Positions 9,457 to 17,687 of a stretch of DNA of 23,513 nt are shown here, piece after piece. Origin of the DNA: a virus (taxonomy: Duplodnaviria > Heunggongvirae > Uroviricota > Caudoviricetes); IMG/VR virus record IMGVR_UViG_2737471866_000003. One strand, given 5' to 3'. Under the pieces are notes generated by a model. That model saw nothing but the letters and a program-made list of their open reading frames with translations, did no database searches and was not told the DNA's origin. Every line of letters starts with the position of its first letter. Within the stretch, counting starts at the first letter, position 1. A program made the position numbers and the translations under genes.

Positions 9457-12400
9457 CGTCCACCTCCGGAGAACAGACCACCATCACGGGACTGCTGTTG
9501 CATAAAGTCCGCTGCTGCTTTTTTCCCGAGGTCATAAACCACCTTCAGGGCAGCCGGACCTATCTGCCCGTTCGTGCCATCGTTATTGATCTCGATGTTG
9601 TACTGCGGGGCAAACATCGCCATACCTGAACCACCAATATCCGCCACAACCCCCAGCTTACCGTCAGCACCACGACGCAGAGGCAGAATGGCTTCAGGCC
9701 CAGCTTCCCCCATCACACCTGCACCTTTTGCAAAAGCAAAAAACGTCGGACGGTTAACCACCGTGCCACTGTAGCGACTCAAATCAGCAGACTGATAAAC
9801 ACCACCATCAGCATTGGGCGTCACACTGGCAGTTGCTGCACTCCCCCAGCCAAACGCCGAACCAATCCCCTTAACTGCCTGCATCATGGACATCTGGGCC
9901 ATGATTTTTGCCAGATCAGAAAGGAGCGAGGCGGTAAAAGATTTGAAGTTCAGTTTTCCGGTAGTACAGAACGTTGCCAGTGCATTACCTGCACTGTTAA
10001 ATGCCGCTGTAAGCATCTGCTCAGCAGTGCCTGCCGCATTATCCGCATCTGCCGTGAAATTCTGAAACGCCCGCATAGCACCGTTTTTCCAGTTACCCTG
10101 AGCAATTTCAAGCTGTTGCCAGTAACGGCGATTCTCATTCAGTTGTCGGTTCAGGCTCTCCGTCAGCGCCTGCTCGGCCTTTCTGTAGTCATCCGTGTTA
10201 TATGTCCCTTTCTGCTCACTATCCCGCCTCAACTGCTCCAGCTGTTGCTGGTATTTCTGGCGAAGACTCAGTTGTACCTGATATCGCTGCCGCTGCTGAT
10301 CACCCATACCCACCGTGGCGATATCCAGGTCATGTTGCTGACGCTGAGCGCGCTCTTCTTCAGCCAGTTGACTGGTCAGCTGAATTGTTTTTTTCTTCAG
10401 ATCGTTGAGTGCCGTCTGTTTCTGAAGCTCCTGCTGTTTTACATCCAGCAGCGTCAGTGCCTGAATCAGTTCATCTTTACGGGCCAGCACACTCTTTTCA
10501 TCTGCCGTCAGTTTTTTCCCGTCCAGATCGCTGATGCGCTGCTGCAGAGCCAGAAGCTGTTTATGCGCTTCTGTCATCCTGTCAGTGGCAATGCCTGCTG
10601 ACTGTCTTGCAGCAGCAATCTGTCCTTCCACCTGTGCCTGTTGCTGGCTGTACTGCAGCAATAACCGGGTGGCCTCATCATTACGGGTTTCACGTGTTTT
10701 TTTCTTACCGGATGCCAGGGCTTTCTCGTAACGTTCATTTTCACGTTGTATCGCCGCATCCCTGACAGCCTGATCGGCGTACTGCATGGCATTAATACGC
10801 GCAATTTCACGCTGATGTCGTGCAGCTTCCGTTTCATTCATCCGGTTCAGTGCAGCATTTTCAGCATTACGGCGTTTCTGTTGCTCCTGATAATTCCGCT
10901 CTGCCTGCTCTTTTGCATCCTGCAAATCCTTCTGGCGTTTTTTCTCCTGAAGATCGTTAAGACGCTGCTGATCGTATTCAACCTGAGAAGATGATGCCGT
11001 CCAGGGGAGTCTTTTCGCCCGCGACACTTTCTCCTGCAAAGTGGCAATCTGCGCATCCAGCGAATCTTCACGACCAATATTCATGGCCGCATCCCAGAAC
11101 TGCTTCCACCAGTCAGACAAGGTTTGCAGCGTACTACCCAGCGCATTGAGGTTATTATCAATATCCGCAGTACGCCGACCGGTTTCCTCTGCCAGTGCAG
11201 ACATGGCTATCCGTGCCGCATCACTGGACCGCCCCTGCTCTCCAAGGACGCGTATCTGCTCAAGCTGAGTGGCAGTAAGAAAATGCAGCTCATTGTCCAG
11301 AGACTTCGCGGCATTTACAGGATCATCCTTCAGCCGCTTAAACTGATTTATGGTATCGCTGACCGACTGGCCAACCGATCGCTCCATCTGTGCGGCAGCT
11401 CTCGCCACCATACCGATATCGTTTCCACGAAATGCACCACTCCCCACCACCTGAGCCAGCGCACCGGCTGCAGCATGTTGCGTGATACCATTCCCGGAAA
11501 TAGCACGACTGAGCGTCCACAGCTGCCCGGCAGTGACTCCGGCATAATGCCCCGTCAGCGACAGCTGGCGGTTAAATTCTTCCCCCTCCTTCTGACCGTC
11601 ATACCAGGCTTTACCCAGACCATAGACAGCCGCGGCAATACCACCAATAACCCCGCCCAGCATCATGCCTTTCGGTGACATCAATGTGTCTATCCACCCG
11701 GCACGGTTAGCCAGCGTTATTCCGGATCCCCTCAGCGCACCTAAATTTCCGCGGGCCAGTTCACCTATCAGAACGCCTATCTCCTGACGGGCCGCTGCAC
11801 TTTTCAGACCCAGCGAATGCGTGGCTTTTCCTGCCTGCTCCATTTTGCGGATATACACTTCTGCAGCACTGCTTACCCCCAGCTGGGCAGCCTTAGCACG
11901 AAGCAACTCAGAAGAAGAAAGATTCTGGCGGGTTGCCTGCTCTTTAAGCTGACGGATAAACGCCACTTTCTGTCGGGTAGCCTCTTCCTCAGCCTGTGTA
12001 AGAACACGGGTTTTCGCCGTAACCTCAGAAATCAGCGCCAGATAATCCTGCTGACCAATCCCGCCACTGTTTCTGGCCTGTCGGATCTGCTGCTGAATAC
12101 GCTGTAATTCCTGCAGCCCCGCACTGGCCTGTTTCACACTGTCAATCTGACGATAAAACGCAGCAGCCGCTTTATCCTGAGCCTCCGCCAGAGCCATGGC
12201 CTGCGCCTGTTCCTCGCGCATTTTCTGGCTCAGCGCCTCCATGCGCTGGCGGGTTTTCTCCACCTCGCGGGCCATGCGTTCATGAGCCTGTGCGTTCTTC
12301 TCCACCGTCTGCGCATGGACGGATGCGGCTGTTGCAGCCGAAGACGCCGCCTGCGTTGTCTGCCGGGCGGCCTGAGTCTGACGCTCCATAAAACGCTGCA

Positions 12401-12527
12401 TACGGGCAGAAGACCGTTCTGCATCGCTGGCTGCACCATTCAGAAGGTTTTTGATACGGGGGATTTCATTTTTAAACTCTGCCGCATCAATCCCCAAATC
12501 AATGACCAGGTTGGCTATCTGGTCCAT
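9453..12527 (-). CDS. H: Tail tape measure protein H (about 1024 aa from the RBS-supported ATG)
   Basis: Track ORF 9453..12557 (-). The internal ATG at 12527 (MDQIANLVIDLGIDAAEF...) has a GGAGG RBS 8-12 nt upstream and aligns with the lambda H N-terminus. The C-terminal end (...INNDGTNGQIGPAALKVVYDLGKKAAADFMQQQSRDGGLFSGGGR) matches the lambda H C-terminus. The N-terminal half has long Q/E/R/A-rich coiled-coil-like sequence. Confidence 0.85.
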   Translation of the reverse strand: MDQIANLVIDLGIDAAEFKNEIPRIKNLLNGAASDAERSSARMQRFMERQTQAARQTTQAASSAATAASVHAQTVEKNAQAHERMAREVEKTRQRMEALSQKMREEQAQAMALAEAQDKAAAAFYRQIDSVKQASAGLQELQRIQQQIRQARNSGGIGQQDYLALISEVTAKTRVLTQAEEEATRQKVAFIRQLKEQATRQNLSSSELLRAKAAQLGVSSAAEVYIRKMEQAGKATHSLGLKSAAARQEIGVLIGELARGNLGALRGSGITLANRAGWIDTLMSPKGMMLGGVIGGIAAAVYGLGKAWYDGQKEGEEFNRQLSLTGHYAGVTAGQLWTLSRAISGNGITQHAAAGALAQVVGSGAFRGNDIGMVARAAAQMERSVGQSVSDTINQFKRLKDDPVNAAKSLDNELHFLTATQLEQIRVLGEQGRSSDAARIAMSALAEETGRRTADIDNNLNALGSTLQTLSDWWKQFWDAAMNIGREDSLDAQIATLQEKVSRAKRLPWTASSSQVEYDQQRLNDLQEKKRQKDLQDAKEQAERNYQEQQKRRNAENAALNRMNETEAARHQREIARINAMQYADQAVRDAAIQRENERYEKALASGKKKTRETRNDEATRLLLQYSQQQAQVEGQIAAARQSAGIATDRMTEAHKQLLALQQRISDLDGKKLTADEKSVLARKDELIQALTLLDVKQQELQKQTALNDLKKKTIQLTSQLAEEERAQRQQHDLDIATVGMGDQQRQRYQVQLSLRQKYQQQLEQLRRDSEQKGTYNTDDYRKAEQALTESLNRQLNENRRYWQQLEIAQGNWKNGAMRAFQNFTADADNAAGTAEQMLTAAFNSAGNALATFCTTGKLNFKSFTASLLSDLAKIMAQMSMMQAVKGIGSAFGWGSAATASVTPNADGGVYQSADLSRYSGTVVNRPTFFAFAKGAGVMGEAGPEAILPLRRGADGKLGVVADIGGSGMAMFAPQYNIEINNDGTNGQIGPAALKVVYDLGKKAAADFMQQQSRDGGLFSGGGR

Positions 12528-12828
12528 AACGCACACCTCCGGAAATACCTTCCCCAAGATGCATCAGTTCTTCGTCCGTTCGCTCCGGTATCCCGTTCTC
12601 TTCCGGTAAAAGGCTGAAATCAGCCACCGCAGCATCACTGCTGCCGGACACCATTCTCACGATCAATGCCTTCAGCGAGGCAAACTGCGCATCCATCCAC
12701 ACATCACTGAAGCTCTGCATCCGGAAATAATCGCCCCACTCACCAAGCTCAGTGGCCGACATTTCCGACAGCATCCGCCGCCAGTCTGCCCGCCGGAACT
12801 CCCGGGCAAGCCGCATGACAAACTGCAT
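12499..12828 (-). CDS. T: Tail assembly protein T reading frame, expected to be expressed only as a G-T fusion by -1 ribosomal frameshift
   Basis: Track ORF 12499..12828 (-) lies in the -1 frame relative to G, whose stop is at 12837-12839. The T frame stays open upstream into the last codons of G, the arrangement known for lambda G/G-T. Confidence 0.75.
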   Translation of the reverse strand: MQFVMRLAREFRRADWRRMLSEMSATELGEWGDYFRMQSFSDVWMDAQFASLKALIVRMVSGSSDAAVADFSLLPEENGIPERTDEELMHLGEGISGGVRYGPDSQPGH

Positions 12829-15037: not shown

Positions 15038-15313
15038 TTACTCAATAAAGATCATTGGCTTACCGTTAAAGCGTTCATGCCGTGTGACCGTCCATTGTTG
15101 TCCGTCATAAACAACGCGATCCCCGCGCCGTGGGCGGTATCCCGAAGAAAACACCACCAGAGAGACCGCAGGTCCGGACAGAGCATTTAGCTCTGCCAGT
15201 GTTTCTCCCGGGATCACAGTCATATCGACATCATTAATCGAGGCTGTCTTTCCCATCTTTCTGACCGTGATCGCATCCATACGCGCTGCCAGCCGGGAAA
15301 AGGGATCAGACAT
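15038..15313 (-). CDS. Small head-tail joining / head completion protein (91 aa), family not confidently assigned
   Basis: Track ORF 15038..15313 (-). It sits where lambda has FI/FII, between the capsid gene and Z, and overlaps the upstream gene by 8 nt. I have no reliable sequence match from memory. Confidence 0.5.
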   Translation of the reverse strand: MSDPFSRLAARMDAITVRKMGKTASINDVDMTVIPGETLAELNALSGPAVSLVVFSSGYRPRRGDRVVYDGQQWTVTRHERFNGKPMIFIE

Positions 15314-15629
15314 TGAGTTTTACCGGCACTTCTTCTGCACTGGTTCCGGCATCTGCCCAGACAACCCCGACCAGCGGATCAGAGCCGCTGTTAGTCAGCT
15401 GAACTTTTCCGGACTTCAGATAAACCTTCTTACCCGTTTTCATATCATCCGTTTTCAGCTTAGGCAGCATAAACACACCTTCGGTCATGCCGTCGCCTGT
15501 TTCACCCTGTGGAATATCGGTCAGCGCCACCGCAAAAACATCACCCACCTGCACCAGATCTCCGCTGCTGATGGCTGCACTGGCAACAATCGCCACCGTT
15601 TTTCCTTCTTCTACAAAATTCTTTGCCAT
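15306..15629 (-). CDS. Small head-associated protein (about 108 aa; possibly DUF2190-like capsid accessory protein)
   Basis: Track ORF 15306..15674 (-). The ATG at 15629 (MAKNFVEEGKTVAIVAS...) has a GGAGA RBS about 8 nt upstream and lies downstream of the capsid-gene hairpins; the longer start would begin inside the hairpin. Assigned by position and size only. Confidence 0.5.
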   Translation of the reverse strand: MAKNFVEEGKTVAIVASAAISSGDLVQVGDVFAVALTDIPQGETGDGMTEGVFMLPKLKTDDMKTGKKVYLKSGKVQLTNSGSDPLVGVVWADAGTSAEEVPVKLNV

Positions 15630-15715: not shown

Positions 15716-17674
15716 TTACGCCGTACATTTCACCAGACCGCGGTGATCAACTGGCGCGACACCGGCGTCAATACGCACTTTCGTTGTCACGCCATCCACA
15801 CTGAAGCCCTCCATCTGATCAATATATGGCGTATCCACACCGTTGAGATAAGCCACTTCAATCGTATCGGAGCCTTTTGACGCAGCCAGGTAGAAGGTGG
15901 TCTGGCTGTTATCATCAAGACGAGGCTCTGCAATAACGGTCGCAAAATCTTTCACCGGGTTAATAATACCGGCGTTAATGTCAGCCCCCTTGACACTTGA
16001 GGAGCGAATGACCTGGTTAGCAACAGACTCCATCGCCGTCGGTACCAGTACGAACGCAGGACGAATATTCAGATGACGCTCCCCCTCTTTCTGAACGCGC
16101 ATCAACTGGCGGGCTTTATCCAGCGATGCCACGTCCATTGCAGCGCTCTCCAGTACGTTTGCATGTTTCGCTTTATCGAACAGACTTACATTATCTGTGG
16201 AGATTTTCGGGTTAGACGTCAGAATGGCATAAACCAGATCGGCAATAGTGGATTTCGCCGCACGGCCCAGCTTCATCGGGACATCGGTCAGCATATTCAG
16301 ATCATCATTGATAATGGCCTGACGGGTGATACTGAACAGCTCGCCATAGGTCGCCAGTGCAATAGTGGCCTGTTTATCTCCGGTGGTGACGTATTTATAT
16401 TCCGCCCCTTCACGCACCTGACGCAGAGCACTGAAGCCCCCCATACCCACACGATGGGCAATTTTAAAATCAGACAACTGACCTTTCCGCGTCCACTGTT
16501 CATAGGTTTCAGGGGCATCTTCCCAGCCCTGCAGAATGGCTTTGTTCGCAACATCCAGCAGAATATTACCGAAGTCAGACGTACTGTGTGTGAACGCCGC
16601 ACCGACCATCTGCATCGGGTTATAACTGGAAACCCCAATACCCCGTTCAGTCAGTGACATACGGGCATATTCACGCAGGGTCATCCCGTTGTAGACATTA
16701 TCACGTTCGGTTTTTTCAAATCCGGCACGCGCCATCAGCGCCTGGCGAATCCCGTCCCCCACAAAATTACCGTTACCGGCATAAATATGAGCCGGAGTAT
16801 TTTTATTGGATGGCGTGGACTCGCGCCCCATCTCGTTCAACAGCTTTTCGCGGGCCTGCTCCAGCGAACATTCAGGATCGGCAAGACACTGAGCCTGCAG
16901 CGTCTGATAACGCCCGCCAAACATGGCAAACAGATCATTAATACCGTTTACACGCGCTTTTTGCTCTGCCAGTACCTGCGCACGGATGCTGTTTTCATCC
17001 ACCACGGGTGCTGCTGCCTGCACTGGCGTCCGGGAGGCTGCAGGTTCATCATCCTGTACGCGTGGAGCACTGTTGCGTGGCGGAGTAATCATGTTTCGAA
17101 TGGATTCCGGCATCTTTTTAAATTCCTCTGTACGTTTTGACTGAATACATGCCATTGCCTTAACGGCTGGCGTCACCTGATCAGCAAATCCATGTGCCAG
17201 ACATTCGGCACCGGACATCCAGGTCTCATCCGCCAGCATGGCAGCAATTTCATCGGTGGTTTTCCCGGTTTTCTGTGCATAAGCGGGTAACAGAACCGCC
17301 TCAACCTTATCGAGCAGGTCGGCATAGGTGCGCATGTCCTCCGCATCACCGCCCGTAAAGCCAAATGGTTTATGAATCATCATGAAGGTGTTTTCCGGCA
17401 TAATGACCGGGTTTCCCACCATCGCAATGACCGACGCCATTGACGCCGCCACACCGTCGACATAAACGGTAATGGACGCACCATGTGTTTTCAGTGCATT
17501 AAAAATGGCGATGCCTTCAAAGACATCGCCACCCGGTGAATTGATATGGAGATTAATGTGGGTGATATCGCCCAGTGCATTCAGATCACTGATAAACTGC
17601 TTCGCCGTAACACCCCAGAAACCAATCTCGTCATAAATATAAATATCCGCGTCACTCTGGTGACCAGCCTGCAT
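15716..17674 (-). CDS. Fused prohead protease (ClpP-like serine protease) - scaffold-like linker - major capsid protein (HK97 fold), about 652 aa
   Basis: Track ORF 15716..17935 (-) overlaps the portal gene by about 250 nt; the first ATG after the portal stop is at 17674 (MQAGHQSDADIYIYDEIGFWG...). The N-terminal about 200 aa has ClpP-like motifs (GVAASMASVIAMVG Ser context, MIHKP His context). The middle is coiled-coil-like (AQVLAEQKARVNG...) and the C-terminal about 350 aa is capsid-like. Confidence 0.8.
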   Translation of the reverse strand: MQAGHQSDADIYIYDEIGFWGVTAKQFISDLNALGDITHINLHINSPGGDVFEGIAIFNALKTHGASITVYVDGVAASMASVIAMVGNPVIMPENTFMMIHKPFGFTGGDAEDMRTYADLLDKVEAVLLPAYAQKTGKTTDEIAAMLADETWMSGAECLAHGFADQVTPAVKAMACIQSKRTEEFKKMPESIRNMITPPRNSAPRVQDDEPAASRTPVQAAAPVVDENSIRAQVLAEQKARVNGINDLFAMFGGRYQTLQAQCLADPECSLEQAREKLLNEMGRESTPSNKNTPAHIYAGNGNFVGDGIRQALMARAGFEKTERDNVYNGMTLREYARMSLTERGIGVSSYNPMQMVGAAFTHSTSDFGNILLDVANKAILQGWEDAPETYEQWTRKGQLSDFKIAHRVGMGGFSALRQVREGAEYKYVTTGDKQATIALATYGELFSITRQAIINDDLNMLTDVPMKLGRAAKSTIADLVYAILTSNPKISTDNVSLFDKAKHANVLESAAMDVASLDKARQLMRVQKEGERHLNIRPAFVLVPTAMESVANQVIRSSSVKGADINAGIINPVKDFATVIAEPRLDDNSQTTFYLAASKGSDTIEVAYLNGVDTPYIDQMEGFSVDGVTTKVRIDAGVAPVDHRGLVKCTA

Positions 17675-17687
17675 CCTGAACCAGGAA

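Follow-up and report, generated by a model that had tools for sequence, protein, structure and literature searches.

Does a single gene in this viral DNA supply the prohead protease, a scaffold and the shell subunit of the capsid and, if so, to what kind of phage head does it belong? The question is raised by one long open reading frame in the 23,513-nucleotide stretch of Caudoviricetes DNA analysed here as a whole (IMG/VR record IMGVR_UViG_2737471866_000003, hereafter the window), for which the original prediction had proposed an N-terminal ClpP-like protease, a scaffold-like linker and a C-terminal capsid domain joined in one polypeptide. Our answer is that it is very probably a Gifsy-2-type "tripartite capsid gene" of a lambdoid E. 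coli phage or prophage of the mEp460/cdtI kind, with the parts and the processing set out below.

The reading frame and its start codon

Both the ORF list and the translation of the window gave a single uninterrupted frame at 15716..17674, with 652 codons plus a stop. It lies on the minus strand; the original prediction gave no strand. On the 5' side the frame remains open as far as 17935, leaving room for a start codon upstream of the ATG at 17674 from which the 652-aa form is counted. No Shine-Dalgarno sequence was found before this ATG, which is located 13 nt past the stop codon of the portal gene, and an AAGGAGG sequence is present 5 nt before an in-frame GTG at 17743, 69 nt upstream of the ATG. 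Moreover, the residues around the ATG, SWFRMQA (N-S-W-F-R-M-Q-A), constitute a conserved motif, W-F/Y-x-hydrophobic-x-A, with counterparts in distant homologs such as K-S-W-F-H-M-Q-A, D-K-S-W-Y-S-L-K-A and K-N-W-Y-S-I-K-A, where the column of the Met is usually occupied by Ile or Leu. The Gifsy-2 protein has an Ile in this column and no in-frame start there or later, and RefSeq/PGAP annotates the 675-aa form for a 99.8% identical prophage gene.

The spacing of the AAGGAGG sequence, the motif that runs across the ATG, the Ile of Gifsy-2 and the PGAP annotation make GTG 17743 the most likely start. The gene would thus span 15716..17743 on the minus strand (GTG start, TAA stop at 15716-15718) and encode 675 rather than 652 aa, with 23 residues from 17675-17743 preceding the protease domain and an overlap of 56 nt with the 3' end of the portal gene. 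The ATG at 17674, without a Shine-Dalgarno sequence and inside a conserved motif, was rejected as the start in favour of the GTG. Residue numbers throughout follow the 652-aa numbering, counted from ATG 17674.

The C-terminal capsid module

HMM searches of the protein returned CLP_protease for its N-terminal half and Phage_capsid_4 for its C-terminal one. The Pfam profile Phage_capsid_4 (PF25209) matched aa 352-649 (15728-16621, minus strand) with E=7.4e-55 and 187.5 bits (threshold 27), and a weaker match to the capsid part was produced by Mu-like_gpT (PF10124; E=3.7e-8, 33.5 bits, threshold 20.1). In addition, a profile built from 22 diverse homologs of aa 293-652 matched the solved capsid proteins 9jod and 8rkc/8rkx ("Mu GpT domain-containing protein") at E values of about 1e-11. 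The Pfam score and the matches to solved capsid proteins bear out the capsid-like C-terminal domain that had been predicted, and they support its assignment as an HK97-class major capsid protein related to Mu gpT. AlphaFold2 yielded unusable models of the fusion protein (mean pLDDT of 39.3 from the single sequence and of 35.4 with 20 homologs of 76-96% identity), and both the fold and the domain borders are therefore taken from the profile matches only.

The capsid module was delimited as aa 293-652 (15719..16798, minus strand), and four lines of evidence would place its N-terminal border between roughly aa 293 and 362. First, homologs of 362 and 367 aa that have neither protease nor scaffold, and that may be incomplete genes, start around 15 residues N-terminal to the position that corresponds to aa 307. 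Second, most homolog alignments to the capsid part begin at aa 306-311. Third, sharp changes of identity were detected at about aa 205, 300-306, 320 and 346 in close homologs from E. coli, Shigella and Salmonella: in homolog P0062 the identity rises from 51-81% to 100% after aa 306, and in homolog P0070 it drops from nearly complete to 70% after aa 319. Fourth, the Mu-gpT-type solved capsid proteins and the Pfam core start only at about aa 350-362. As this evidence is spread over aa 293-362, the conserved aa 293-351 may constitute an N-arm, or else a propeptide that invariably accompanies the capsid domain. The Gifsy-2 paper of Effantin et al. (2010) is said to describe a central domain of about 200 residues, which would favour a mature N-terminus near aa 350. 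A literature search for cleavage sites returned nothing; a CBASS preprint on protease-scaffold fusions deals with other phages.

The linker and the scaffold-like segment

Between the protease and the capsid module, aa 171-198 are conserved and are followed by a Pro/Ala/Gln-rich linker, PPRNSAPRVQDDEPAASRTPVQAAAPVV (aa 199-225; 17000..17080, minus strand). This hypervariable, indel-rich linker is the only poorly conserved and length-variable stretch among homologs of 76-96% identity, and in diverse homologs the segment 170-226 ranges from 30 to 139 aa in length. Next comes a conserved helical segment, DENSIRAQVLAEQKARVNGINDLF...EKLLNEMG... (aa 226-292; 16799..16999, minus strand), which belongs to no curated domain family: searches of aa 226-292 against Pfam produced noise only, and the matches obtained were limited to the corresponding part of fusion or protease-scaffold PHROGs. 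It is also the only region predicted as helical, with pLDDT values of 62-80, inside the otherwise unusable low-confidence AlphaFold2 model. A central part of scaffold-like character is what had been predicted. By analogy with the delta domain of HK97 or with Nu3 of lambda, this segment is probably an internal scaffold, a role that is a conjecture because the segment matched no family.

The presence of a scaffold within a longer frame recalls lambda, which nests Nu3 in C, and exactly such nesting could operate here. Two primary products would then be made, the full chain and a commoner scaffold-capsid chain initiated internally, for example at Met188, so that only a minority of the subunits would carry the protease. 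In favour of this, Met188 does not vary among close homologs, a weak GAGG sequence lies 11 nt upstream of it, and some database proteins, of 411-471 aa, start within the scaffold segment. However, the match to a Shine-Dalgarno sequence is poor and its spacing long, the Met188 column is mostly occupied by A, V or I in the wider family, and the short database proteins could stem from separate genes or from gene calls that were truncated. We regard a second product of this kind as improbable, and Met188 was rejected as an internal start on account of its weak Shine-Dalgarno sequence and its lack of conservation.

The ClpP-type protease domain

With translation of the full chain as the preferred reading, every subunit would begin with a ClpP-like (peptidase S14) prohead protease domain, which was located by Pfam, NCBIfam and phmmer at aa 1-170 (17165..17674, minus strand). 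Pfam CLP_protease (PF00574) matched aa 23-168, well within the N-terminal 200 aa, with E=4.4e-36 and 124.9 bits (gathering threshold 20.2). The NCBIfam model NF045542 (Clp_rel_HeadMat, head maturation protease, ClpP-related) matched aa 9-167 with 215.8 bits over a cut-off of 120, and phmmer matched the fusion protein to solved ClpP chains with E values down to 3.9e-16. Ser78 (codon 17441..17443, minus strand), in the sequence GVAASMAS, aligned with the active-site Ser of ClpP GMAASMG, and His101 (codon 17372..17374, minus strand), in MMIHKP, with the His of ClpP MIHQP. The ClpP-like Ser/His context that the prediction had placed at the N-terminus is thus in place, within an S14 domain.

Ser78 and His101 are invariant in all 20 close homologs and in 79 of 79 diverse ClpP-class fusion homologs, a set that reaches down to ~32% identity and in which the sequence around both residues diverges. 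The third residue of the ClpP triad, Asp149, is invariant in the 20 close homologs, and its column contains A, D or E in the 79 diverse ones, where the alignment is possibly imprecise. Given this variation across the broader family, catalysis may rely on a Ser-His dyad, or else the Asp149 column may be misaligned.

The unconserved third residue could also be read as the mark of a catalytically dead domain acting only as additional scaffold, with processing carried out by a host protease or absent. Canonical ClpP is active only as a tetradecamer, an assembly not easily imagined when the domains are attached to capsomers. Against this stand the persistence of Ser78 and His101 while the neighbouring sequence diverges, the score above cut-off of the head-maturation-protease model, and the fusion of the same capsid family to S49 and S78 proteases as well, which argues that selection retains the protease as such. 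A dead protease is very improbable on this evidence.

Integrity, identity and prevalence of the fused gene

The NCBIfam model NF045540 aligned with the fusion protein from end to end (aa 9-651 with model positions 2-651 of 652; 985.2 bits, cut-off 475), which excludes a hidden frameshift or stop, and PHROG 133 also matched over the full length with 1187.6 bits. An unrecognised frameshift or stop inside the gene was rejected for this reason together with the continuous frame. The claim of one ORF for protease and capsid consequently holds, with no frameshift or stop that splits two genes and with both halves matching their families far beyond chance. That protease, scaffold and capsid are separate genes, fused only in appearance through the loss of a stop in the window or through a frameshift introduced by sequencing or assembly, has next to no probability: database proteins with capsid only (362-367 aa) or with scaffold and capsid (411-471 aa) do exist, so that unfused arrangements may occur in nature, and the window has one apparent single-base frameshift, in lom, but the alignment to the 652 positions of NF045540 is unbroken, an independently sequenced phage encodes a protein of 100% identity, and the single ORF is also found in RefSeq, in more than 2000 complete genomes and in Gifsy-2.

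The identical protein is the "Major Capsid Protein" of Escherichia phage Tritos, in which the order of the portal and fusion genes is the same as here. At the DNA level, the fusion gene is at least 98.7% identical in mEp460, cdtI, phi458, Ayreon and other deposited phage records, which, like the identity to the Tritos protein, speaks for a functional gene. Alignments of the whole window to these phages cover 73-82% of its length at 95-97% identity. The gene was detected in 2125 of 5426 complete E. coli genomes (about 39%), and at an identity of at least 99% in 1510 E. coli records; PGAP names the 99.8% identical gene of E. coli genomes [quoted passage not shown]. The fusion gene is a member of an already known, named and experimentally characterised family, the Gifsy-2 type. 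Its occurrence in enterobacterial lambdoid prophages, as had been suggested, is confirmed by the match to NF045540, by the E. coli genomes and by Gifsy-2 STM1034.3n, with which the protein is colinear at 70% identity over 662 aligned positions.

The names given to this gene are far from uniform, public phage records labelling it variously as Nu3, protease C, scaffold protein, major head protein or ClpP. For Gifsy-2 itself, an automated capsid-gene pipeline obtained no HK97-fold capsid protein (PMC8814770). The main value of the present result lies in annotation, as records need no longer show a "missing capsid gene" or a spurious host "ClpP" once the fusion is recognised.

Neighbouring genes

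Upstream of the fusion gene are the genes for a small terminase subunit (DUF1441), for TerL, with gpA ATPase and nuclease domains, and for a portal of the lambda gpB family (17688..19196, minus strand; Pfam Phage_portal_2, E=5.9e-82; 22% identity to lambda gpB). Downstream, a capsid cement/decoration protein of 107 aa is encoded (15306..15629, minus strand; Pfam Phage_cement_2, E=9e-21), followed by Z, U, V, G and the remaining lambda-type tail. Identity to the lambda proteins amounts to 22-25% for TerL and the portal, 33-55% for Z, U, V, G and T, 26% for H, and 98-100% for M, L, K, I, J, lom and stf. An apparent single-base frameshift is present in lom, outside the fusion gene.

When compared by BLASTP with all lambda late proteins (E<=1e-3), the fusion and cement proteins produced no match, whereas TerL, the portal and all the tail proteins did, from which we conclude that the shell genes are of another lineage than those of lambda. 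The distinct head lineage joined to a lambda-type tail that had been proposed therefore stands for the protease, scaffold, capsid and decoration functions; it does not extend to the terminase and the portal, which belong to the lambda gpA and gpB families. In the same way, the statement that lambda encodes C, Nu3 and E separately is correct for the capsid protein E, which has its own gene, and needs amending for C and Nu3, as Nu3 is nested in frame inside C.

Modularity of the wider capsid family

The capsid part retrieved more than 10,000 representatives of 50%-identity clusters at E<=0.001. Among the best 134 of these in phmmer, 79 have a ClpP-like N-terminus, and ten sampled from the remaining representatives had Peptidase_S78 (HK97-type), Peptidase_S49 (lambda C-type) or no protease domain. 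Judging from these S14, S49 and S78 fusions and from the existence of a second NCBIfam fusion model, NF045541, the fusion of a protease to the Phage_capsid_4 family is thus a recurrent theme that has already been catalogued.

Recombination breakpoints among the E. coli genes, at about aa 205, 300, 320 and 346, coincide with the proposed domain borders, which would make the fused gene a mosaic of modules. That Phage_capsid_4 is a recurrent acceptor for protease fusions, and that the fused gene is less a fixed unit than a mosaic whose modules can be exchanged, is nevertheless a reading that we hold to be rather unlikely. If it were true and not systematically described, it would make a modest new point, namely selection that links the dosage of the protease to that of the capsid subunits. 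Internal initiation giving a protease-free scaffold-capsid chain would be a second novelty, and it is less likely than the mosaic.

A model for head assembly and maturation

The model of a Gifsy-2-type gene builds on the domain identities, the active-site residues, the colinearity with Gifsy-2, the synteny and the prevalence observed here; for the processing, the T number and the order of events it draws on Gifsy-2 and on general knowledge of HK97 and lambda. One polypeptide of ~675 aa would be made, consisting of a ClpP-fold serine protease (Ser78/His101), a flexible Pro/Ala-rich linker, a helical scaffold and an HK97-class capsid domain. Full-length chains would form a T=7 procapsid on the lambda-family portal, their N-terminal parts directed inward. 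The protease domains, crowded in this way, would be switched on and would degrade the protease, linker and scaffold parts, either in trans, in cis or both. The fragments would then exit, and of each chain the C-terminal capsid domain, about 300-360 aa, would be all that remains. Finally, the shell would expand as DNA is packaged, and the 107-aa cement protein from the next gene downstream would stabilise it. That the mature capsid protein is freed by proteolysis, as the original prediction had already put forward, would be expected by homology to Gifsy-2.

No new principle is at stake in this gene. The fusion represents a well-established variant of capsid assembly, in which protease, scaffold and shell subunit are provided at a fixed 1:1:1 ratio.

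Comparison with known systems

The head genes of lambda (C, Nu3, D and E) resemble those of the window in having protease and scaffold in one frame, Nu3 being nested in C, and in encoding a separate decoration protein; the terminase and portal families and the tail genes are also common to both. In contrast to the window, the C protease of lambda belongs to family S49 and not to S14, the capsid protein is encoded by a separate gene, and no BLASTP similarity links the fusion protein to C, Nu3 or E, or the cement protein to gpD.

In HK97, the scaffold (delta domain) is built into the gp5 capsid precursor and is removed by a phage serine protease. A scaffold built into the capsid precursor is what the window has in common with this system. 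The differences concern the protease, which in HK97 is the product of a separate gene (gp4) and of the S78 family, whereas that of the window is of the S14 family and in the same chain as the capsid, and the cement protein, which is encoded separately in the window. Furthermore, we know of no covalent cross-linking for the capsid type of the window, unlike that of HK97.

A protease-scaffold-capsid design is likewise shared by the proteins of NF045541 (scaf_prot_MCP2) and by the S49 and S78 fusions. NF045541 matched the scaffold-capsid part of the fusion protein (aa 197-649) with 400 bits, below its cut-off of 525, and in these proteins the N-terminal protease is Peptidase_S78 or Peptidase_S49 instead. 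Of NF045540 (scaf_prot_MCP1, ClpP-like prohead protease/major capsid protein fusion protein), the protein of the window is a typical member.

The closest parallel is Salmonella phage Gifsy-2, for which the "tripartite capsid gene" is mentioned, with credit to Effantin et al. 2010 (Virology 402:355, pmid 20427067), in a passage of PMC12315714. [quoted passage not shown] The E. coli version, known here from sequence alone, differs from it in the length and sequence of the linker, in its N-terminal parts, which are much less conserved between the two than the capsid part, and in its tail-tip genes, which are 98-100% identical to those of lambda in the window and not in Gifsy-2. In both, ClpP-like, central and capsid parts follow one another in the same order; the 107-aa cement protein is 61% identical to Gifsy-2 STM1034, and the gene order is the same, from terminase, small ORF and portal through the fusion and cement genes to a lambda-type tail.

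Mosaicism within the fusion gene

Comparison of the fusion gene (15716-17674, minus strand), which joins a ClpP-like protease, a linker/scaffold-like segment and the major capsid protein, with its database homologs (P0062, P0070 and P0083, among others) revealed a mosaic pattern inside the gene itself. Identity along the fusion protein changed suddenly at around residue 205, at residues 300–306, and at residues 320 and 346 (numbered on the 652-aa product). Such abrupt switches in the aligned sequences indicate that the protease, linker-scaffold and capsid parts of this gene are exchanged independently among prophages.

The capsid family (Phage_capsid_4), which forms the C-terminal part of the fusion protein, was also found with other partners, being joined to an S78 (HK97-type) or S49 (lambda C-type) protease in place of ClpP. 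It also occurs in shorter proteins that comprise the scaffold-capsid part only or the capsid part only. The proteins behind these non-ClpP and short forms were P0142, P0145, P0180, P0186, P0200, P0233, P0137, P0139, P0222 and P0228.

Annotation of the head genes in public records

Labels given to the fusion gene vary from one public record to another, and include Nu3, protease C, scaffold protein, major head protein, ClpP and ATP-dependent Clp protease. Certain database "proteins" fuse it with portal, terminase or tail genes (e.g. P0006, P0033 and P0061), joins that are probably artefacts of gene calling or assembly.

Downstream of the cement-protein gene, and separating it from the Z-like gene, a 91-aa gene (15038-15313, minus strand) occupies the expected place of a head-completion or connector protein. 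It is assigned to Pfam PF13856, whose family label is "ATP-binding sugar transporter from pro-phage", and carries the PGAP label "DNA breaking-rejoining protein". Neither of these names seems correct.

Comparison of the tail genes with phage lambda

M, L, K, I, J, lom and stf, which make up the tail-tip and fibre genes, showed 98–100% protein identity to phage lambda itself. Identity to lambda was just 26% for the tape-measure protein H, and 33–55% for Z, U, V, G and T. The H/M gene border is an abrupt mosaic joint (582-9456 versus 9453-12557, minus strand).

In the lom homolog (2971-3590, minus strand), a G run at around position 3381 is one base shorter than in lambda lom (GTGGGGG to GTGGGG), shifting the frame and leaving an ORF of only 135 aa, compared to 206 aa in lambda. 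Either lom is a pseudogene here, or the homopolymer was misread in sequencing.

The side tail fibre gene (582-2912, minus strand) is a single intact 776-aa ORF spanning lambda orf-401 and orf-314 with more than 99% identity. As one uninterrupted ORF covers both, this gene lacks the frameshift carried by the side tail fibre gene of laboratory lambda.
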